Assembly (NCBI GenBank): GCA_943369755.1
Contig: CALROG020000005.1
Span: 49,689 to 113,688 of the forward strand
DNA from: Ramlibacter sp. 2FC
GTDB taxonomy: Bacteria > Pseudomonadota > Gammaproteobacteria > Burkholderiales > Burkholderiaceae_C
Direction: 5' to 3'
Length of the DNA: 64,000 nt
Shown here: positions 7,224-46,791 of the stretch, piece by piece
How positions within the stretch are numbered: position 1 is the stretch's first letter
Layout: each line of letters begins with the position of its first letter
Notes under the pieces: generated by a model
What the model saw: the letters and a program-made list of their open reading frames with translations, nothing else
Told to the model about the DNA's origin: nothing
Database searches by the model: none
Position numbers and translations under genes: made by a program

Positions 7224-10200
7224 CTACTGATTCAACTGCCCCCATACCTTGTCCAGCCGCTTGATGCTCACTGGCTGCGGGGTGCGCAGCTCCTGGGCGA
7301 AGAAGCTCACCCGCAGCTCTTCCAGCAGCCAGCGCAATTCGCTCATGCGGTCATCCACGCTGCCCTTGCGCTCGGCCACAAGACGCCAGTAGCGCTGTTC
7401 CTGCGGGCGCAGCTCGGCCAGCTTTTGGGCGTCGCGTGCCGGGTCAGTGCGCAGCTTGTCCAGCCGCAGGGTAATGGCCTTCAGGTAGCGGGCAAAGTGC
7501 TGTAGCTGGGCCCAGGGGGTGTTGGCCACAAAGCGTTTGGGCATCAGGCGTTGGAGCTGCTGGGCCACGTCGGCTGTGGCGTCAGGCTGGTTTTTGGTGT
7601 CTTTCAGCTTGCGCGTGGCACCGGCGTATTCCAGCAAAATCAGGCCCGCCAGCCGTGCCACTTCATTGGCGATCAGGGTCAGCCGCCCCCTGCCCTCGTC
7701 CACCCGGCGCTTGAAGTCCAATTCGTTCTTGGGCAACGGCTCCAGCAAAAAGGCGCGCTCCAGCGCCAGGTCGATGATCTGGTCGCGCAGCTCTTCCTGG
7801 GTCCCCAGGGGCATGAAGGCCACGGCCATTTTTTGCAGCTCGGGGATGTTCTTTTCCAGGTACTTCAGCGCGTCTTTTATCTGCAATGCAAACAGGCGGC
7901 GCAGGCCCGCGCGGTGCTTGGCGGCGGCCACCTCGGGCTCGTCAAACACCTCAATGCTCACCGCGTCTACACCGTCGATCAGCGCCGGAAAACCAATCAA
8001 GGTTTGCCCGCCTTTTCGGATTTCCATCAGCTCGGGCAGCTCACCGAAGCGCCAGGCGGTGTAGCGCTGGTCAGTCGCCTGCGCCGCGCTTGCTACACTT
8101 TTTATAGTGGCTCCCGCAGCATCTACGCGGGCTACAGCCTGATTCGTTGCTTTTTCAGGGCTGGCGGCGGTCACCGCCCCTTTCATTGCGGCCAGCGCCT
8201 GGAAGGCACCGCGCGCCTGTGCGCCCAACTCGGCCTTGAGCGCGCCCAGGTTGCGTCCGGTGCCGAGCTGGCGGCCATGCTCGTCGACCACGCGGAAGTT
8301 CATGAACAAGTGCGGTGCCAGCATGTCGAGCTTGAAGTCGGCTCGCTTGACGTCCAGGCTGGTTTCGTCGCGCACAAGTTTCAGCAACGCGTCGGTCAGG
8401 CTGCCGCCGCCCCAGGCTTGTGGCGTGCTCAAGGCCGCAGCCAGCCGCGCGGCCGACTCCGGCAGCGGCACAAAGCGCGAGCGCGGGCGCTGTGGCAGGC
8501 TTTTCAGCAACGCCTGTACCTTGTCCTTCAGGATGCCGGGCACCAGCCATTCGGCGCGCTCGTCGCTGACCTGGTTCAGCACAAACAGCGGCACTGCCAC
8601 TGTCAGGCCGTCGCGCGGGTCGCCGGGCTCATGCAGGTAGCTGGCGGCGCAGTCCACGCCGCCCATGCGAATCGTCTTGGGGAAGGCGTTGGTGGTGATG
8701 CCCGCTGCCTCATGGCGCATCAGTTCGTCGCGGGTGAGCTTGAGCAGCTCGGGCTGCTTGCGCGCCTCTTCGCGGTACCACTGCTCAAAGCCCAGGCCAC
8801 TGCAAATGTCGGGCGGCAGCTGCTGGTCGTAAAAGGCAAAGATCAGTTCGTCGTCCACCAGCACGTCTTGCCGGCGGGCCTTGTGCTCCAGCTCTTCCAC
8901 CTGGCCAATGAGCTTGTGGTTGGCCGCCAGGAAGGGCAATTTGGTTTCCCAATGGCCGGCAACGAGCGCCTCGCGGATGAAGACTTCGCGGGCGGCGTGC
9001 ATGTCCACCCGGCCAAAATTCACCCGCCGACCGCTGTACACCACCAGGCCGTAGAGCGTGGCGCGCTCCAGCGCCATCACTTCGGCGGCCTTTTTTTCCC
9101 AGTGCGGGTCCAGCAACTGTTTTTTGAGTAGATGGCCGGCTACCTGCTCGATCCATTGCGGCTCGATGTTGGCAAGGCCGCGGCCAAACAGGCGCGTGGT
9201 TTCCACCAGCTCGGCCGCCACGATCCAGCGGCCCGGCTTCTTGCTCAGGTGCGCGCCGGGGTGGCGATGAAACTTGATGCCGCGGGCCCCCAGGTATTCC
9301 GACTGCCCGGAGCCGCTTGTCCTGGGCCCGGTCGACGGGTTCGAGGCGGCTTCTTCCAGCTTGTAGCCAATATTGCCCAGCAGGCCGGCCAGCATCGACT
9401 TGTGCAGCTCTTCGTAGCTGGCGGGCAGCGTGTTCAGCCGCCACTGGTGCTCGGCCACCACGGTATGGAGCTGGGTGTGAATGTCGCGCCACTCGCGCAC
9501 CCGGCGCACGCTGACAAAGTTCTGCCGCAATAGCTGCTCGTACTGGCGGTTGCTGAGCTTGTGCGCCTGGTTGTGGCCGCCGCGCGCGTCGTTGATCCAC
9601 TTCCACAGCTTCAAATAGCCGCTGAACTCGCTTTTTTCGTCGTCAAATTTGGCATGGGCCTGGTCGGCCTGTTGCTGCGCGTCCATGGGGCGGTCGCGCA
9701 CATCCTGCACGCTCAGGGCGGCGGCAATCACCAGCACCTCGTCCAGCGCGCCACGGCTGCGCGCCTCCAGAATCATGCGCCCGACCCGTGGGTCAAGGGG
9801 CAGCTTGGCCAGCTCCCGGCCCGTGGGCGTCAGCTCGTTGGCGTCGTCCACCGCGCCCAGTTCGTTGAGCAACTGGTAGCCATCGGCAATGGCGCGGCCA
9901 GAAGGCGGCTCGATAAACGGGAACTGCGCGACATCGCCCAGGCGCAGCGACTTCATTCGCAAGATCACCCCAGCCAACGAGCTGCGCAGGATCTCCGGGT
10001 CGGTAAAGCGCGGACGGGCGTTGAAGTCTTTTTCTTCGTAAAGCCGGATGCAAATGCCATCGGCCAGGCGGCCGCAGCGGCCTGCGCGCTGGTTGGCGGC
10101 GGCCTGGCTGATCGGTTCCACCAGCAACTGCTCGACCTTGCTGCGAAAACTGTAGCGCTTAACCCGCGCCGTGCCGGCGTCGACCACAAAACGGATGCCG

Positions 10201-11222
10201 GGCACCGTGAGCGAGGTTTCGGCCACATTGGTGGCCAGCACTATGCGGCGGGCGCTGTGGCTGTCGAAAATCTGGTCTTGCTCGGCCTGGCTCAGCCGCG
10301 CAAACAGCGGCAGCACCTCGGCGTTGCGCGTCAGTGGGCTGTGCGACAGGTGGCGGCGCAGGTGGTCGGCGGCCTCGCGGATTTCGCGCTCGCCGGGCAA
10401 AAACACCAGAATGTCACCGCTGGCGTTACCTGCCCAAAGTTCGTCCACCGCGTCGGCAATGGCGTCATTCAGGTCGTGCTCGCGGCTTTCCTCGAAGGGC
10501 CGCCAGCGTTGCTCCACCGGGAACATGCGCCCCGAGACCATGATCACGGGAGCAGGCAGCCACTCGCCCCCACGCTCCCCCACTACGTGTGGGTCGCTGC
10601 CCCCCGAGGGGGCCTCGCCCGCCTTGGGGCGGCCCGGCGGCGGGCGACGCGACGCAAAATGCCGGGCAAACCGGTCGGCATCAATCGTGGCGGACGTAAC
10701 GATCACCTTCAGGTCAGGCCGGCGCGGCAGTATCTCGCGCAGGTAGCCCAGCAAAAAGTCGATGTTCAGGCTGCGCTCATGGGCCTCGTCAATGATGATG
10801 GTGTCGTAGGCCTTCAGCAGCGGGTCGGTCTGGGTCTCGGCCAGCAAAATGCCGTCGGTCATGAGCTTGACGGACGCGTCACGGCTCAGCCGGTCCTGAA
10901 AGCGCACCTTGAAACCCACCACCTCACCCAGCGGCGTGTCCAGCTCCTGCGCAATGCGTTTGGCCACGCTGCTGGCCGCAATGCGGCGCGGCTGGGTGTG
11001 GCCAATCAGCTGGCCCTTTTGGCCGGGCGCTGCATTGAGCTTGCCGCGCCCCATCGCCAGCGCAATTTTTGGCAACTGGGTGGTTTTGCCCGAGCCGGTT
11101 TCACCGCAGACGATCACCACCTGGTGCGCCGCAATGGCGGCCATGATCTCGTCGCGCTTGCCCGAGACCGGCAGTGATTCAGGGAAGGTAATGCTCAGTT
11201 GCGCCAAGGCTCGATAACTCAA
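7224..11222 (-). CDS. hrpA: ATP-dependent RNA helicase HrpA (DEAH box)
   Basis: 1332 aa with GETGSGKTTQ, DEAHERS and TSAT motifs and a long HrpA C-terminal region. The start is TTG at 11222. It carries two repeat-derived in-frame insertions (see findings). Confidence 0.95.
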   Translation of the reverse strand: MSYRALAQLSITFPESLPVSGKRDEIMAAIAAHQVVIVCGETGSGKTTQLPKIALAMGRGKLNAAPGQKGQLIGHTQPRRIAASSVAKRIAQELDTPLGEVVGFKVRFQDRLSRDASVKLMTDGILLAETQTDPLLKAYDTIIIDEAHERSLNIDFLLGYLREILPRRPDLKVIVTSATIDADRFARHFASRRPPPGRPKAGEAPSGGSDPHVVGERGGEWLPAPVIMVSGRMFPVEQRWRPFEESREHDLNDAIADAVDELWAGNASGDILVFLPGEREIREAADHLRRHLSHSPLTRNAEVLPLFARLSQAEQDQIFDSHSARRIVLATNVAETSLTVPGIRFVVDAGTARVKRYSFRSKVEQLLVEPISQAAANQRAGRCGRLADGICIRLYEEKDFNARPRFTDPEILRSSLAGVILRMKSLRLGDVAQFPFIEPPSGRAIADGYQLLNELGAVDDANELTPTGRELAKLPLDPRVGRMILEARSRGALDEVLVIAAALSVQDVRDRPMDAQQQADQAHAKFDDEKSEFSGYLKLWKWINDARGGHNQAHKLSNRQYEQLLRQNFVSVRRVREWRDIHTQLHTVVAEHQWRLNTLPASYEELHKSMLAGLLGNIGYKLEEAASNPSTGPRTSGSGQSEYLGARGIKFHRHPGAHLSKKPGRWIVAAELVETTRLFGRGLANIEPQWIEQVAGHLLKKQLLDPHWEKKAAEVMALERATLYGLVVYSGRRVNFGRVDMHAAREVFIREALVAGHWETKLPFLAANHKLIGQVEELEHKARRQDVLVDDELIFAFYDQQLPPDICSGLGFEQWYREEARKQPELLKLTRDELMRHEAAGITTNAFPKTIRMGGVDCAASYLHEPGDPRDGLTVAVPLFVLNQVSDERAEWLVPGILKDKVQALLKSLPQRPRSRFVPLPESAARLAAALSTPQAWGGGSLTDALLKLVRDETSLDVKRADFKLDMLAPHLFMNFRVVDEHGRQLGTGRNLGALKAELGAQARGAFQALAAMKGAVTAASPEKATNQAVARVDAAGATIKSVASAAQATDQRYTAWRFGELPELMEIRKGGQTLIGFPALIDGVDAVSIEVFDEPEVAAAKHRAGLRRLFALQIKDALKYLEKNIPELQKMAVAFMPLGTQEELRDQIIDLALERAFLLEPLPKNELDFKRRVDEGRGRLTLIANEVARLAGLILLEYAGATRKLKDTKNQPDATADVAQQLQRLMPKRFVANTPWAQLQHFARYLKAITLRLDKLRTDPARDAQKLAELRPQEQRYWRLVAERKGSVDDRMSELRWLLEELRVSFFAQELRTPQPVSIKRLDKVWGQLNQ
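8090..8141 (+). repeat. Family-A interspersed repeat, copy 2 (inside hrpA, antisense to the gene)
   Basis: ttGCTACacTTTTTATAGTGGCTccCGCAgcatctacGCGGGCTaCAGCCtg. hrpA translates it as AVARVDAAGATIKSVASAAQ. Confidence 0.9.
10572..10646 (+). repeat. Family-B GC-rich repeat, copy 1 (inside hrpA helicase core)
   Basis: Shares the identical blocks TCGCTGCCCCCCGAGGGGGC and GGGGCGGCCCGGCGGCG with the copy at 46060-46130. hrpA reads it as RRPPPGRPKAGEAPSGGSDPHVVGERGGEW. Confidence 0.85.
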
Positions 11223-21503: not shown

Positions 21504-22432
21504 ACGCAAGAACCGAACCCCAACTGCTGGCCCAGCTAAGCAACCGCCACCTGGACGCACTGGAGGAAGAAACCATCTTCATCCTGCGCGAGGTGGCTGC
21601 CACCTTTGAGCGCCCTGCTCTGCTGTTTTCAGGCGGCAAGGACTCTTTGGTGTTGCTGAAATGCGCCGAAAAGGCTTTTGGCGTGGGGCGCATCCCCTAC
21701 CCATTGTTGATGATCGATACCGGCCACAACTTCCCCGAGGTCACCGACTTTCGCGACCTGCGCGCCAGGGAACTGGGCGCTGAGCTCATCGTGCGCAGCG
21801 TCGAAGACTCCATGAAGCGCGGCACGGTGCGCCTGGCCCACCCCGGCGAGAGCCGCAATGTGCACCAGTCGGTGACGTTGCTGGAATCCATTGAAGAATT
21901 CCGCTTTGATGCACTGATTGGCGGGGCCCGCCGCGACGAAGAAAAGGCCCGCGCCAAGGAGCGCATTTTTTCGCACCGCGACAGCTTTGGCCAATGGCAA
22001 CCCAAGGCCCAGCGCCCCGAGCTGTGGACGCTGTTCAACACCCGGCTGCAGCCCGGCGAGCACTTCCGGGTGTTCCCGATTTCCAACTGGACTGAGCTGG
22101 ACGTGTGGCAGTACATCGAGCGCGAGCAAATTGCCTTGCCCTCGATCTACTACGCCCACCCGCGCCAGGTGGTACAGCGCAAGGGTCTGCTGGTGCCGGT
22201 GACTGAACTCACCCCGCCGCGTGACGGCGAAGAGGTGCAAACCCGCACCGTGCGCTTTCGCACTGTGGGCGACATCACCTGCACTTGCCCGGTGGACAGC
22301 CCGGCCGCCACGGCTGCCGAGATCGTGATCGAAACCCTGGCCGCCGACGTGAGCGAGCGCGGCGCCACCCGCATGGACGACAAAACCTCTGACGCTTCGA
22401 TGGAAAAGCGCAAAAAAGACGGGTATTTCTAG
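21500..22432 (+). CDS. cysD: Sulfate adenylyltransferase subunit 2
   Basis: 310 aa with the PP-loop LLFSGGKDS. Its ATG overlaps the cysH stop (ATGA). Confidence 0.95.
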   Translation: MNARTEPQLLAQLSNRHLDALEEETIFILREVAATFERPALLFSGGKDSLVLLKCAEKAFGVGRIPYPLLMIDTGHNFPEVTDFRDLRARELGAELIVRSVEDSMKRGTVRLAHPGESRNVHQSVTLLESIEEFRFDALIGGARRDEEKARAKERIFSHRDSFGQWQPKAQRPELWTLFNTRLQPGEHFRVFPISNWTELDVWQYIEREQIALPSIYYAHPRQVVQRKGLLVPVTELTPPRDGEEVQTRTVRFRTVGDITCTCPVDSPAATAAEIVIETLAADVSERGATRMDDKTSDASMEKRKKDGYF

Positions 22433-22448
22433 GCACACCCCCAGGCTT

Positions 22449-22515
22449 CGCGCACCTTGTGCGCTTCGCCTCCCCCCTTGCAGGGGGCAACACCAGCGGC
22501 CCGGCAAAGCCGGTT
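22449..22515 (+). repeat. Family-B GC-rich repeat, copy 3 (divergent, between cysD and cysN)
   Basis: gcgcaccttgtgcgcTTCGCCTCCCCCCttgcaGGGGGCaacaccAGCGGCCCGGCaaagccgg has the same hairpin layout as copies 1 and 2. Confidence 0.6.
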
Positions 22516-22545
22516 CCGCGGTGTTCATCAGAATGGAGAATCACT

Positions 22546-27691: not shown

Positions 27692-27737
27692 CATTCCGCG
27701 CCCGCTTTACAATACGCGCTGCACTCGCAAGGGTGCA

Positions 27738-27835
27738 ACTCGCTAGGGGTGTTGCCGCGCTGCAAATTTGCAGTGGGGCGACTGAGAAAGTCCCTTTGAA
27801 CCTGATTGAGGTAATCCTCGCGCAGGGAAGCAAGC
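27738..27835 (+). promoter_or_regulatory. TPP (thiamine pyrophosphate) riboswitch aptamer
   Basis: CTAGGGGTG...(P3 hairpin CTGCAAATTTGCAG)...ACTGAGAAAGTCCCTTTGAACCTGATTGAGGTAATCCTCGCGCAGGGAAGC matches all conserved THI-box blocks (GGGGUG, CUGAGA, CCUUUGAACCUGAU, GCG.AGGGAA). Confidence 0.9.
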
Positions 27836-27841
27836 TCCAAG

Positions 27842-27870
27842 GTGGTGCCCTCTTCTCCCGGGCACTTTTC
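27842..27870 (+). terminator. Intrinsic terminator forming the riboswitch expression platform
   Basis: GGTGGTGCCCtcttctccCGGGCACTTTTCCACC lies directly after the aptamer and 45 nt before the receptor start. Confidence 0.6.
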
Positions 27871-30123: not shown

Positions 30124-30199
30124 TCCTCGATAGCTCAGTCGGTAGAGCGCCGGACTGTTAATCCGTAGGTCCCTGGTTCGAGCCCAGGTCGAGGAGCCA
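30124..30199 (+). tRNA. tRNA-Asn (anticodon GTT), CCA encoded
   Basis: Acceptor stem TCCTCGA/TCGAGGA, D-arm TAGCTCAGTCGGTAGAGC, anticodon loop CTGTTAA, T-arm GGTTCGAGCCC, 3' GCCA. Confidence 0.95.
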
Positions 30200-37943: not shown

Positions 37944-38082
37944 AAAGCGTGACTCCTCTTTTCAGTGCCCTCCCCCGCGCACGGTAATGCGCGGGCTTGG
38001 CAGCCAATAGATTCGTCCAAAGTTAGTTGACTGAATTAGGACAGAGCTTGCAGCCATGCCGCTGCGGTCTGCCCGGAAAATT

Positions 38083-43838: not shown

Positions 43839-45500
43839 TCATAAAAATTTGCTGGTTATAGGATAGCGCCAATCTTTGCCAAAGCTGCGGTGGCTGACCC
43901 TGATGCCCACTGGTGCCTGGCGGCGCTTGTACTCATTGATCTTGATCAGCCGGGTCACCCGGTCAACGTCAGCGCGGGCGTAGCCGGCAGCAACGATCTC
44001 GTCGGCCGACTGGTCGTTTTCCATGTAGCGCTCCAAAATCGCGTCCAGCACCTCGTAGGGCGGCAGGCTGTCCTGGTCTTTCTGGTCGGGCCGCAGCTCG
44101 GCGCTGGGTGGGCGGGTGATGATGCGCTCGGGAATCGGGTTGGCACCCGTACCGTAGGGGTCGTTGGCATTGCGCCAGTGCGCCAGTCTGAATACCGTGG
44201 TCTTGAGCACGTCCTTGATCACCGCGAAGCCACCGGCCATGTCGCCATACAGCGTGCAGTAACCAGTGGCCATCTCACTCTTGTTGCCGGTGGTCAGCAC
44301 GATGCTGCCGAACTTGTTGCTCAGGGCCATCAGCAACGTGCCCCGGATGCGGGCCTGAATGTTCTCTTCGGTCGTGTCTTCGGCCCGGCCTGCGAACTCG
44401 CTGGCCAGCGCCGCCTTGAAGGCCTCGAACTGCGGCACGATTGAAATTTCGTCGTAGCGCACGCCCAGGCGCCGGGCCATCTCGCGCGCGTCGATCCAGG
44501 AAATGTCGGCGGTGTAGGGCGAAGGCATCATCACTGTACGCACCTTGTCGCGGCCCAGGGCGTCAACCGCGATGGCCAGCACCAGGGCTGAATCAATCCC
44601 GCCCGACAGGCCCAGAATCGCACCGGGAAAGCCGTTCTTGCCGATGTAGTCACGCACGCCCAGCACCAGCGCGTCCCACAAATCCGCCTCGACGCTGCGT
44701 TCGGGCACCGAATTCGCTATGATTTTTATAGCGGCTCCCGAACGCTCCACGCGGGCTGGAAACATGTTTTCTTCAAAACTCGGGGCCCGCCCGGCCAGAC
44801 TGGCGTCGGCGTTCACGGCGAATGAGTGCCCCTCAAAAACCACCTCGTCCTGGCCACCCACCAGGTGCGCATAAACCAGCGGCAGGCCGCAGGCGCGTAC
44901 CCGCTCAAGCATAGTCTGTTCGCGCTCGCTGCCCTTGCCGACGTGAAACGGCGAGGCATTGATCACCGCCAGCAGCTCGGCACCGGCGTCCTTGGCGGCC
45001 TGGGCGGGGGCCTGGAACCACGCGTCTTCACAGATCAGCAGGCCCACCTTGATGCCTTGCACCTCGAACACACAAGTGCCGGTGCCTGGCGTGAAGTAGC
45101 GGCGCTCGTCAAACACCTGGTAGTTGGGCAGCTCACGTTTGGCGTAACTGGCGATCACCGCGCCCTCGCGCAGCACACTGGCCGCGTTGTGGCGCTGCGT
45201 AATGGCCACACTGCGGGTGCGTTGGTCGCCGCCGGTCGGGTGGCCCACCACCACCGTCATGCCCTTTAACCCGGCCAATTCGCGGGCCACCCGCTTCACG
45301 GCATCATCACAGGCGGCAATGAAGGCCGGGCGAAGGAACAGGTCTTCCGCCGCATAGCCGCAAATCGAGAGTTCGGGTGTCAGCAACAGCCGGGCACCGT
45401 CCGCGTAAGCTGCATGGGCAGCCGCCACGATCTTGCTGGCGTTGCCCGGCATGTCGCCCACGACGAAATTGAGTTGGGCGACGCAAAGTTTGAGAGTCAT
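43839..45500 (-). CDS. nadE: Glutamine-dependent NAD(+) synthetase
   Basis: N-terminal CN-hydrolase domain (LICEDAW) and C-terminal PP-loop LGLSGGIDSALV. Carries a family-A repeat in the inter-domain region. Confidence 0.95.
   Translation of the reverse strand: MTLKLCVAQLNFVVGDMPGNASKIVAAAHAAYADGARLLLTPELSICGYAAEDLFLRPAFIAACDDAVKRVARELAGLKGMTVVVGHPTGGDQRTRSVAITQRHNAASVLREGAVIASYAKRELPNYQVFDERRYFTPGTGTCVFEVQGIKVGLLICEDAWFQAPAQAAKDAGAELLAVINASPFHVGKGSEREQTMLERVRACGLPLVYAHLVGGQDEVVFEGHSFAVNADASLAGRAPSFEENMFPARVERSGAAIKIIANSVPERSVEADLWDALVLGVRDYIGKNGFPGAILGLSGGIDSALVLAIAVDALGRDKVRTVMMPSPYTADISWIDAREMARRLGVRYDEISIVPQFEAFKAALASEFAGRAEDTTEENIQARIRGTLLMALSNKFGSIVLTTGNKSEMATGYCTLYGDMAGGFAVIKDVLKTTVFRLAHWRNANDPYGTGANPIPERIITRPPSAELRPDQKDQDSLPPYEVLDAILERYMENDQSADEIVAAGYARADVDRVTRLIKINEYKRRQAPVGIRVSHRSFGKDWRYPITSKFL
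44713..44760 (+). repeat. Family-A interspersed repeat, copy 6 (inside nadE, antisense to the gene)
   Basis: ttCGCTAtgaTTTTTATAGCGGCTccCGAAcgctccacGCGGGCTgGA. nadE reads it as FPARVERSGAAIKIIANS. Confidence 0.85.
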
Positions 45501-45507
45501 ACCAGCA

Positions 45508-46791
45508 GTGCAAAACAGTTCAAACGATTATGTCATCCGGGTTTTGGCTTCGCCGCTTGAGGTGAATGCTGCCGACTGGAACGCCCTGCACGCGCTGCAA
45601 GCCCACGCCAGCCCCTTCATGCGCCACGAATACCTGGCCGCCTTGCACGAAAGCGGCTGCGCCACACCCGCCACCGGCTGGACGCCGCGCTTTGTCACAC
45701 TGTGGCGCGCCGACCAATTGCAGGCCGCCTGTGCGCTCTACCTGAAGGCGCATTCGTACGGCGAGTACGTGTTTGACTGGGCCTGGGCCAACGCCTATGA
45801 GCAGCATGGCCTGGCCTACTACCCCAAGGCCACAGTGGCGGCACCGTTCACTCCGGTGCCTGGCGCGCGGCTGCTGGCGCGTGACGCGCCCGCCCGTTCC
45901 GCACTGGTGCAAGCGCTGGTGAGCTGGTGCAGCGCCCAGGGTCTGTCGTCGCTACACCTGCTGTTTGCGGCACCAGACGATGTGGCCGCCTGTGAGAAAG
46001 CAGGGCTCATGCTGCGACACACAGTCCAGTTCCACTGGAAGAACATGGCCCCCGCGCTCGGCACTGGCGTGTCCTCGCTGCCCCCCGAGGGGGCGAGTTT
46101 CGCCGTGGGGCGGCCCGGCGGCGAAACCGGCTATCCCGATTTCGACGCCTTCCTCGCCACCTTGAGCCAGGACAAGCGCAAAAAAATCCGCCAGGAGCGG
46201 CGCAAGGTGGCCGACGCGGGTGTGTGCTTTCGACACGCGCAGGGTCGCGACATCACACCAGCAGACTGGGACTTTTTTTACCGCTGCTACGAACGCACCT
46301 ACCTGGAGCATGGCAATGCGCCCTACCTGACGCGCGACTTCTTCCGGCGCATGGCCGACACCATGCCCGAGGCCTGGCTGCTTTTCACGGCGGAGCGCGC
46401 GGGCCAGCCAGTTGCTACAAGTTTAATAGCGCTTCACGCAACACCCATGCGCTCTGGTGGCCAATTTGGCTTGAAAGCGCAGGAAAAAGTAGCCTACGGC
46501 CGCTACTGGGGTGCACTGGAGCGGGTAGACTGCCTGCACTTTGAGGCCTGCTACTACCAGCCATTGCAGTGGTGCATTGCGCAGGGCTACGACCGCTTTG
46601 AAGGCGGCGCCCAGGGCGAACACAAGATGGCCCGCGCACTCATGCCGGTGCGCACCACCAGTGCCCACTGGCTGGCTCACCCCGCCTTTGCCGACGCCGT
46701 GCAGCGCTTTTTGGAGCGTGAAGGCCAGGGCATCGAAAACTATGTCGAGCACCTGGCGCAGCGCAGCCCGTTCAGGCACGAACCCGCTTGA
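45508..46791 (+). CDS. GNAT/FemAB-like protein of unknown function (COG3146-like)
   Basis: GTG 45508 lies just beyond the divergent nadE start. WNALH...SPFMRHEYLAALHESGCA...GWTPRF and C-terminal FEGGAQGEHKMARA are as in this family (recollection). Contains one family-A and one family-B repeat in frame. Confidence 0.7.
   Translation: MQNSSNDYVIRVLASPLEVNAADWNALHALQAHASPFMRHEYLAALHESGCATPATGWTPRFVTLWRADQLQAACALYLKAHSYGEYVFDWAWANAYEQHGLAYYPKATVAAPFTPVPGARLLARDAPARSALVQALVSWCSAQGLSSLHLLFAAPDDVAACEKAGLMLRHTVQFHWKNMAPALGTGVSSLPPEGASFAVGRPGGETGYPDFDAFLATLSQDKRKKIRQERRKVADAGVCFRHAQGRDITPADWDFFYRCYERTYLEHGNAPYLTRDFFRRMADTMPEAWLLFTAERAGQPVATSLIALHATPMRSGGQFGLKAQEKVAYGRYWGALERVDCLHFEACYYQPLQWCIAQGYDRFEGGAQGEHKMARALMPVRTTSAHWLAHPAFADAVQRFLEREGQGIENYVEHLAQRSPFRHEPA
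46060..46130 (+). repeat. Family-B GC-rich repeat, copy 2 (in frame in the 45508-46791 ORF)
   Basis: ggcactggcgtgtccTCGCTGCCCCCCGAGGGGGCgagtttcgccgtGGGGCGGCCCGGCGGCGaaaccgg. Translated as GTGVSSLPPEGASFAVGRPGGETG. Confidence 0.85.
46412..46462 (+). repeat. Family-A interspersed repeat, copy 7 (divergent, in frame in the 45508-46791 ORF)
   Basis: ttGCTACaagTTTAATAGCGCTTcaCGCAacacccatGCGCTCTgGTGGCC. Translated as VATSLIALHATPMRSGG. Confidence 0.75.

Follow-up and report, generated by a model that had tools for sequence, protein, structure and literature searches.

Why does the gene for a conserved RNA helicase carry, within its catalytic core, a G+C-rich, hairpin-forming segment that recurs in an unrelated gene of the same region? 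The 64,000-nucleotide stretch of Ramlibacter sp. 2FC analysed here (the window) contains two such loci, one in hrpA and one in a FemAB-like gene (Table 1). An earlier note on the window had reported two identical blocks at these loci, each pair preceded by a small hairpin of differing sequence. Both blocks were recovered, TCGCTGCCCCCCGAGGGGGC at 10594-10613 and 46075-46094 and GGGGCGGCCCGGCGGCG at 10626-10642 and 46107-46123, with 0.00 and 0.02 matches expected in shuffled windows, and the small hairpins are present at both loci.

Table 1. Coordinates of the repeat copies, their structural parts and their host genes in the window.
Feature	Position	Strand	Remarks
hrpA	7224-11222	-	DEAH-box ATP-dependent RNA helicase, 1332 aa, intact; Pfam DEAD, Helicase_C, HA2, OB_NTP_bind, DUF3418
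BRE copy 1	10564-10649	+ (sense strand)	inside hrpA, read antisense; nhmmer C5:60252-60334, E=2e-15
BRE copy 1, left block GCCCCCACGCT	10566-10576	+	
BRE copy 1, hairpin 1	10579-10593	+	CCCAC-tacgt-GTGGG
BRE copy 1, hairpin 2	10599-10613	+	GCCCCC-cga-GGGGGC
BRE copy 1, hairpin 3 arms	10615-10623 / 10639-10647	+	TCGCCCGCC / GGCGGGCGA
BRE copy 1, hairpin 3 constant loop	10624-10638	+	TTGGGGCGGCCCGGC
Sister-family repeat copy	22431-22528	+	intergenic; RNA fold z = -4.06
FemAB-like (PF04339) / GNAT-type gene	45433-46791	+	PF04339 E=1e-132, two stretches split at insert
BRE copy 2	46045-46129	+	inside FemAB-like gene, read in sense; nhmmer C5:95731-95817, E=3e-13
BRE copy 2, 5' edge ATG	46045-46047	+	CATG precedes
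BRE copy 2, hairpin 1	46060-46074	+	GGCAC-tggc-GTGTCC
BRE copy 2, hairpin 2	46080-46094	+	
BRE copy 2, hairpin 3 arms	46097-46104 / 46120-46127	+	GTTTCGCC / GGCGAAAC; loop 46105-46119

Its match to published sequences identifies the hrpA segment as the Beta-proteobacterial repeat element (BRE), named by Hot et al. 2011 (BMC Genomics 12:207; PMC3110155). The family is already in print and has been little studied; a literature search found no follow-up on BRE after its naming. Three Bordetella pertussis BRE sequences from supplementary list S1 of the paper score 33.6-36.8 bits (E ~1e-12) against an nhmmer profile derived from the genome of this window (G000), aligning to model positions 2-76, almost end to end. 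The paper describes units of 75-91 bp, arranged in tandem and separated by few bases or none; they are mostly intergenic, have ends that overlap ORFs by a few bases, and occur in Alcaligenaceae, Comamonadaceae and Rhodocyclaceae (Bordetella, Polaromonas, Rhodoferax, Acidovorax and others). [quoted passage not shown] In length, tandem arrays, gene placement and taxa the copies here are the same, as they are in the left block CCCCCACGCT, the variable hairpin, GCTGCCCCCCGAGGGGGC and the stem closing TTGGG(G)CGGCCCG. They show no difference of kind, although the hairpin-3 arms are G+C-rich in the copies here (80-83% G+C) and a T/A-run in B. pertussis. What goes beyond the published account, as far as its available text extends, is the covariation in the three-hairpin structure, the nested pattern of in-frame copies within HrpA, ValS, CobQ and other proteins, and the precise placement at stop/ATG junctions. 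No Rfam family reached its gathering threshold in the window, and the element itself gave only chance-level Rfam matches (E>1).

The element comprises a constant left block (GCCCCCACGCT) followed by three hairpins, is very G+C-rich, and occurs both dispersed and in tandem as units of 75-91 nt (~85 nt). Copies in this genome are 77-87 nt long; the two window copies measure 80-82 nt at 80-83% G+C, the hrpA copy having 83%. Across the 3.65-Mb assembly the nhmmer profile detected ~40 solid copies and ~6 weak ones, bearing out the expectation of further genomic copies. Tandem pairs are found on contigs C10, C16, C36, C24 and C25, and the copies at C23:6383 and C25:47998 share 76 nt without a mismatch. 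Of 121 genera sampled from the host family, 103 match a covariance model, with counts per genus from 0 to at least 37, and a pattern fixing 35 bases is matched exactly in more than 120 contigs from Comamonadaceae, Alcaligenaceae and other Burkholderiales. The unit is open in nearly all frames. Among 145 copies from other genera, every one of the six frames is open in at least 89%; in this genome, 20-22 of 22 copies are open in any given sense frame and 15-19 of 22 in any given antisense frame. Only a minority of copies (5 of 22 here and 17 of 145 from other genera) contain a complete in-frame ATG-to-stop mini-ORF, and the reading as a conserved mini-gene or MIRU-like ORF fits that minority alone.

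A third, diverged copy had been proposed at 22449-22515. The three-hairpin layout is indeed the same, but membership of the BRE family did not hold, the profile giving only 5.4 bits. This repeat belongs to a sister family that shares the three-hairpin plan, with a differing third hairpin (ACACC-AGCGG-CCCGGC-aaa-GCCGG-ttCCGC-GGTGT); as a query it found three full-length and ~40 partial relatives in this genome.

In hrpA the element is read antisense as ...SRRPPPGRPKAGEAPSGGSDPHVVGERGGEWL..., and comparison with orthologues delimits the insertion as exactly 84 nt, or 28 codons (~residues 193-220). As the earlier note had held, this Pro/Gly-rich stretch falls after motif III (TSAT) and before motif IV (VFLPG) in the DEAH core and has no counterpart in the Escherichia coli enzyme. 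The alignment with E. coli HrpA (PDB entry 6ZWX, E=1e-165) is split at the insert (query residues 4-190 with chain residues 64-242, and 224-480 with 244-502), leaving a single residue, N243, opposite 33 query residues. The segment is also missing from 24 of 28 relatives, in which ...RFA.HFAS(xxG) runs straight into PAPVI.VSGR. The insertion is shared with other genera: a homologous copy occupies the same site in G005, G002 and G006, the three whose HrpA is most similar. The frame across it is intact in G000, G005 and G002; the assembled G006 gene is frameshifted within the G-run of the element, and the G005 copy carries an extra 33 nt that break hairpin 2 and amount to 11 further residues mid-insert. 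As judged from these orthologues, the copy was acquired by an ancestor of G000 and its three closest sampled genera, having landed in the stretch from motif III to the last strand of the RecA1 domain.

Because the element has essentially no stops in six frames and adds exactly 84 nt, the hrpA frame continues through it. HrpA would be made with an extra 28-residue Pro/Gly-rich loop that is tolerated rather than needed, translation of the insert being suggested by the conserved open frames. We consider it probable, with good confidence, that the hrpA segment is a BRE copy persisting as a tolerated in-frame insert, and that BRE is mobile now or was formerly. A removed intervening sequence, whether intron or intein-like, which would leave mature HrpA without the segment, is scarcely credible: at 84 nt it has no Rfam intron match and is far below intein size, other genes read their copies in the opposite orientation, and the frame stays open in orthologues. 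The segment could instead be a lineage-specific functional loop of the protein, for example a new interaction surface, its likeness to other loci being secondary. The frame kept across genera, intact in three, would fit such a role, but the same DNA occurs ~40 times, mostly intergenic, in both orientations and within different proteins, and G005 tolerates the additional residues mid-insert. Moreover, amino-acid identity between orthologous inserts is 0.32-0.77, against 0.74-0.89 in their flanks, which points to relaxed constraint on the peptide, and we regard a functional loop as very improbable.

Tolerated insertion would extend well beyond hrpA. At least ten copies in this genome lie inside coding sequences, hrpA included, with at least nine further genes affected. 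The FemAB-like gene reads the element in sense as MAPALGTGVSSLPPEGASFAVGRPGGETG, as the earlier note had reported; its second PF04339 stretch covers residues 232-449 (profile positions 167-369), and its true start is probably downstream of 45433. Among its orthologues the element is absent in G009, G016 and G002 and present in G006, while the G005 gene contains at least three in-frame tandem units. The insertions form a nested series: HrpA in G000, G005, G002 and G006; FemAB-like in G000, G005 and G006; ValS and CobQ in G000 and G005; and an aminotransferase in G000 only. The in-frame status of these five was established by orthologue alignment. In four further proteins Pfam domains run across the element, and the additional in-frame hosts include a HAD hydrolase, a receiver domain, PutA, Ldh_2 and a kinase. 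A built-in unit length divisible by three was rejected, as intergenic ATG-to-ATG distances spread evenly over the residues modulo 3; since intergenic lengths lack this bias, the in-frame copies are survivors of selection and not the outcome of a built-in property. The same passive filter could account for all in-frame copies, including those in ValS, CobQ, PutA and Ldh_2: an insert would have to be open in all frames, be a multiple of three in length and land in a permissive loop.

Most copies are intercistronic and occupy exactly the interval from a gene's stop codon to the ATG of the co-oriented gene that follows. The stop of a co-oriented upstream ORF falls between -6 and +4 nt from the start of the element in 20 of 39 copies. 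Orientation agrees with that of the flanking genes in 23 cases and opposes it in 8, a tally from a crude heuristic; the ORF/GC3 genic classification behind it over-calls, the element being open in all frames, and was used for this tally only.

The hairpins themselves have been preserved while their sequences changed. The covariation that had been noticed between the small hairpins of the two loci extends across 30 genomic copies, in which the outer pair of hairpin 1 is GC in 15, CG in 10 and UA in 3, and the next pair UA in 14 and CG in 8; none of 500 shuffles reaches the observed covariation score, and slid controls are lower. Hairpin 3 forms on average 6.5-6.8 consecutive pairs, compared with 3.7-4.3 when arms are swapped between copies, and its arms take 55 distinct sequences among the 154 copies from other genera. 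Of the three hairpins, 1 and 3 covary strongly. Orthologous hrpA copies differ by a compensatory C-G to G-C stem swap, and the hairpin-3 stems of the valS copies of G000 and G005 are wholly different yet self-complementary. Third-position identity exceeds that of the flanks in the hrpA (0.90 versus 0.67, P=0.003) and FemAB (0.79 versus 0.56, P=0.007) inserts, with no such excess in the valS and cobQ copies; for consistent nucleotide-level constraint across orthologous copies the result is mixed, two of four genes giving it. The stem changes and the third-position identity in those two genes hint at in-place constraint or gene conversion and not at a pure passenger.

These observations bear on the possibility that BRE is mainly a structured signal selected by the host, such as an intercistronic element for the stabilisation or processing of mRNA, a small RNA, or a site bound by a conserved protein. 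The genic copies would then be in dual use, their hairpins being preserved in place. The strong covariation, the compensatory changes in hrpA and valS, the third-position identity in hrpA and FemAB, the co-orientation tally (crude as it is) and the precise stop/start placement would all be expected of such a signal, and B. pertussis is reported to produce transcripts that contain BRE, the small RNAs bprJ1/J2 (PMC3110155). However, 18 of 121 genera have no match and counts range from 0 to at least 37, unlike a required signal; hairpin 2 is broken in the G005 hrpA copy; valS and cobQ lack the third-position excess; and the RNA fold z-scores of BRE are modest (-2.9 and -1.6). Propagation of subfamilies can yield the same covariation, and a mainly host-selected signal appears unlikely to us.

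Mobility of BRE, the other part of the favoured explanation, is suggested by its distribution, its near-identical copies and its lineage-specific insertions. The element would be, or have been, non-autonomous, and its spreading would need the hairpins, through recognition of the folded structure of single-stranded DNA or RNA, which would keep the hairpins intact; subfamilies with different but self-complementary stems would arise because of this proposed need. MITE-like terminal inverted repeats were not found, the ends GGCCCCCACGCT and ...GGCGGCGCTCA being non-complementary in the alignment (A1); only a flanking (C)ATG recurs. ATG-containing direct repeats of ~3-15 nt accompany some copies (CGATGACCCCC at C25:47998 and ATGAAG at C37:35765), with empty sites diverged or rearranged. 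No fixed-length target duplication could be defined from such sites, the orthologous junctions of the five nearest genera being rearranged (C37:35765) or too diverged (C25:47998 and C7:56617), and no transposase was found for BRE. REP/REPIN sequences, with their RAYT proteins, are G+C-rich hairpins recognised by structure, with covarying-stem subfamilies and an intergenic location. BRE resembles them in all but the recognition, for which the likeness is proposed above, and differs in its ~85-nt length, its three hairpins and a consensus in which no GTAG-type head was seen. A RAYT/REP link was considered and dropped: the sole PF01797 match, a RAYT-like Y1 transposase gene (C22:11162-11491), is flanked by 23-nt inverted repeats (TAATTGGGGTCAGATTCCAATTA) that differ from BRE, and no BRE lies nearby.

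The junction placement admits a further, tentative reading that we rate as rather doubtful, in which BRE seeks gene junctions: it would land at compact co-oriented stop/start junctions and duplicate the start codon, its hairpins being kept in place afterwards. The targets would be ATGA or TGA..ATG, with guidance by similarity to the 5' end of BRE (ATG-R-CCCCC), and selection or inter-copy conversion would hold the hairpins even inside the essential valS. Were this so, BRE would be a conserved structured signal accommodated by coding sequences and not a mere passenger.

In its behaviour, BRE is analogous to the Rickettsia palindromic elements (RPE). These are described in PMC10969869 and PMC3184786 (citing Ogata et al. 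2000) as short palindromic repeats inserted in frame in unrelated conserved genes, persisting as extra peptide segments read in few permissive frames. BRE is likewise in frame in the unrelated conserved HrpA, ValS, CobQ, FemAB-like protein and aminotransferase. The hosts differ, obligate intracellular Alphaproteobacteria for RPE and free-living Burkholderiales for BRE, as does length (~105-150 nt versus ~85 nt), and BRE lies mostly between cistrons and less often within genes. A second parallel is the MIRU (Supply et al. 1997, as presented in PMC3184786): units of 40-100 bp, tandem in variable number, which sit between the cistrons of operons, overlap the neighbouring stop and start codons at their ends and are traversed by ORFs. 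BRE shares the tandem and intercistronic arrangement, the ends at stop/start junctions and the open frames; MIRU, however, is actinobacterial and unrelated in sequence, and only a minority of BRE copies form a complete mini-ORF.

For annotation, peptides of the form LPPEGA...LGRPGG, or PGRPK.G.APSGGS when the element is read the other way, are to be recognised as repeat-derived, and the C6/G6 runs of the element are likely hot spots for frameshifts or sequencing errors, as in the G006 hrpA. With its covarying hairpins and its exact position at stop/ATG junctions, BRE lends itself to tests of how it is mobilised or what it does. An in-frame BRE is present in at least ten conserved proteins, including the essential valyl-tRNA synthetase, and some of these insertions persist across genus-level divergence; the inserts may serve as dated natural experiments on the tolerance of enzymes for Pro/Gly-rich loops of 27-28 residues.

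The repeat at the two window loci belongs to the Beta-proteobacterial repeat element (BRE) family, which was named by Hot et al. 2011 (PMC3110155), a paper reached through the review of Delihas 2011 (PMC3184786). In its passages on the element, that paper describes BRE as approximately 90 bp long (75–91), G+C-rich and tandem in variable number; most copies sit between genes and run into the neighbouring ORFs at their ends, and some lie wholly within coding sequence. The hosts it lists are Bordetella, Polaromonas JS666 (29 copies), Rhodoferax, Acidovorax, Delftia and Azoarcus; it places BRE in the B. pertussis bprJ1/J2 small-RNA region and leaves function and mobility open. The published B. pertussis sequences match positions 2–76 of a profile derived from the present genome (G000) with 34–37 bits. 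No matching Rfam family was found, the raw motifs had no match in the indexed paper texts, and no later papers on BRE appeared in the literature searched. More than 120 contigs from many Burkholderiales genera contain an exact pattern with 35 specified bases. Of the 121 family genera compared, counted by the genus labels assigned to the genomes, 103 have covariance-model matches, with 0 to at least 37 per genome. These scans give the same taxonomic picture as the published passages, on a larger scale. The observation in the earlier note is correct and well read, and rediscovers a published but obscure family, to which useful new detail is added.

The two loci share the blocks TCGCTGCCCCCCGAGGGGGC (10594–10613 and 46075–46094) and GGGGCGGCCCGGCGGCG (10626–10642 and 46107–46123), for which 0.00 and 0.02 chance matches, respectively, are expected from dinucleotide-preserving shuffles of the window. 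In the 3.65-Mb draft assembly (63% G+C), of which the window is C5:49689–113688, there are 36 instances of the core GCCCCCCGAGGGGGC allowing one mismatch, and an nhmmer profile built from core copies identifies 39 copies at E<1e-8, bearing out that further genomic copies exist, and 46 at E<0.01; tandem pairs lie on five contigs. In the aligned copies, the 5′ part often comprises (C)ATG and 1–4 nt, followed by the constant block GCCCCCACGCT. In hairpin 1 the outer pairs vary, a T is bulged and CAC/GTG is constant; hairpin 2, after CGCT, is the constant GCCCCC-cga-GGGGGC; hairpin 3 is a variable stem of 6–10 bp around the constant loop TTGGGGCGGCCCGGC. Two copies (C10:10393-10508 and C37:10897-10956) carry approximately 27 extra nt (GCAGCTAAAGGCTGCGCTTCGCTTGCC and similar) where the hairpin-3 loop normally begins (TTGGGG); a nested insertion or a variant subfamily might account for this.

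The variable stems covary, as the earlier note had read from a small hairpin that pairs despite sequence differences. Among 30 copies, the outer pairs of hairpin 1 are GC 15 / CG 10 / UA 3 and UA 14 / CG 8. Double changes are seen at 11 of 18 pairs; the covariation score is 0.256 versus 0.118 after shuffling, none of 500 shuffles reaches the observed score, and slid controls are all lower. For hairpin 3, the unbroken run of pairs counted from the constant loop outwards averages 6.5 for the G000 copies and 6.8 for 154 copies of other genera, versus 3.7 and 4.3 when arms are swapped between copies. At least eight consecutive pairs are found in 87 of these 154 copies (approximately 8.5 expected), whose arms comprise 55 distinct sequences. 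Single-sequence fold z-scores are modest (−2.9 and −1.6), in keeping with the 80% G+C content.

The hrpA copy is an insertion, as had been proposed. HrpA was searched in 30 relatives from other genera, and 24 of the 28 orthologues aligned lack the segment, reading ...RFA.HFAS-xxG-PAPVI.VSGR; in most relatives the match is interrupted at query residues 195 and 223, although their DNA is contiguous. The TSATIDA-to-VSGR distance is 171 nt in G000 versus 87 nt, exactly 84 nt extra. In the E. coli HrpA structures (6ZWX, 6ZWW), chain residues 64–242 correspond to G000 residues 4–190 and 244–502 to 224–480, and the Prp43 and DHX15 alignments split at the same place. The split puts the insert past the helix that follows motif III and ahead of the final RecA1 strand, at a point occupied in E. 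coli by one residue, N243. In the three genera whose HrpA is most similar (relatives G002, G005 and G006), a homologous copy occupies the same site, and one ancestral insertion is the most economical reading. The insert measures 84 nt in G002 and 117 nt in G005, where 33 extra nt interrupt hairpin 2. As assembled, hrpA of G006 (L013, G006:C1) has a frameshift within the BRE G-run (5 G versus 6 in G000 and G002), which is a true lesion or else a homopolymer error of assembly; within genes, indels are likely to concentrate in the C6/G6 runs. Separately, near G000 residue 552, a low-complexity insert of up to approximately 80 aa follows ...LKLWKW..ARGG in several other genera (L013, L014, L017, L018, L019, L006) and is absent from G000; this is a second permissive site in HrpA.

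Other genic candidates were taken as ORFs spanning BRE with coding-like flanks, followed by orthologue alignment. The FemAB-like insert is present in G000 and G006, absent in relatives G009 and G016, and ambiguous in G002 (NAAPGSDSGY). In G005, the closest relative, this gene (L155, G005:C4) carries at least three tandem in-frame units of 27 aa each, so tandem expansion occurs within coding sequence too. ValS has 84 extra nt in G000, with an orthologous copy in G005 and none in G002, G006, G016 or G009; the CobQ copy is confined to G000 and G005, and an aminotransferase has 81 extra nt in G000 only. The nesting HrpA > FemAB > ValS and CobQ > aminotransferase is in line with insertions recurring over a long period. 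Pfam domains continue across BRE in a HAD hydrolase, PutA (Pro_dh), an Ldh_2 enzyme and an APH-type kinase, and a receiver-domain match ends at the insert. Together, alignments and Pfam spans place at least 10 of the approximately 46 G000 copies within real genes.

The genic copies use one of two frames, a sense frame (..LPPEGA..LGRPGG..) or an antisense one (..PGRPK.G.APSGGS..), and the inserted peptides have amino-acid identities of 0.32–0.77, versus 0.74–0.89 in the flanks. Each of the six frames is open in at least 89% of 145 copies from other genera; in G000, 20–22 of 22 copies are open per sense frame and 15–19 of 22 per antisense frame. Around intergenic copies, the flanking ATG-to-ATG distance shows no multiple-of-three preference, which rules out in-frame fit as a design feature of BRE and, with the open frames, identifies the in-frame genic copies as survivors of selection.

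Intergenic copies often lie at gene junctions. A long co-oriented upstream ORF ends −6 to +4 nt from the first BRE position in 20 of 39 solid copies, and for many copies a co-oriented gene starts downstream within approximately 10 nt of the BRE end. An ATG stands 3–7 nt ahead of CCCCCACG in about half of the full set; ATG-G or ATG-A immediately precedes it in 19%, versus approximately 1% by chance, a rough estimate from base composition. Between co-directional genes, a crude tally gives 23 co-oriented and 8 opposite copies. ATG-containing direct repeats flank some copies (CGATGACCCCC at C25:47998, where the upstream stop overlaps the downstream start as ATGA; ATGAAG at C37:35765). In other genera, the corresponding junctions have been rearranged or have diverged too far to define a target duplication.

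The stretch at 22449–22515, which the earlier note counted as a diverged third copy, shares the three-hairpin plan of BRE but has a different third hairpin, and the BRE profile gives it only 5.4 bits; it is a member of a sister family that has the consensus ...CCCCCGAAGCGCCTTCGGCGCCTCCCCCTCAAGGGGGCGCCACCAGCGGCCCGGCAAAGCCGGTTCCGCGGTGGC... and three nested hairpins, and whose members usually begin directly after a stop codon, often as ATGA. The RAYT-like gene was rejected as BRE mobiliser because a different repeat flanks it, in perfect 23-nt inverted copies (TAATTGGGGTCAGATTCCAATTA). These resemble the AT-rich-core 'family A' repeat of the window, so the gene may be the mobiliser of family A.

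Features of the window and related loci
Feature	Location	Strand	Description
hrpA	7224-11222	-	1332-aa ORF, full HrpA-type DEAH helicase; Pfam DEAD, Helicase_C, HA2, OB_NTP_bind, DUF3418; hosts first BRE locus (10564-10649)
FemAB_like/GNAT ORF		+	hosts second BRE locus (46045-46129); Pfam match split at BRE
Sister repeat family	window 22431-22528; also e.g. C12:24616, C1:65453, C18:1959	+	3 full and ~40 partial relatives genome-wide
TPP riboswitch	window 27735-27845	+	Rfam match at gathering threshold
tRNA	window 30124-30196	+	Rfam match at gathering threshold
ilvH RNA	window 37950-38017	-	Rfam match at gathering threshold
RAYT-like Y1-transposase gene	G000:C22:11162-11491 (L151, ORF 1156-1866)	-	only such gene in genome

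A functional structured signal is an unlikely account of BRE. Three observations speak against a pure passenger. A compensated swap of C-G for G-C distinguishes the orthologous hrpA copies; the orthologous valS copies have hairpin 1 in common and entirely different yet self-complementary hairpin-3 stems; and identity at third positions is higher than in the flanks for hrpA (0.90 versus 0.67) and FemAB (0.79 versus 0.56), but not for valS and cobQ. These observations could be due to gene conversion among copies or to selection in place. We favour the reading that BRE acts, or once acted, as a non-autonomous mobile element, probably recognised by its structure, such that subfamilies would keep self-complementary stems. 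The genic copies, like Rickettsia palindromic elements (PMC10969869), would then be tolerated passengers in permissive loops.
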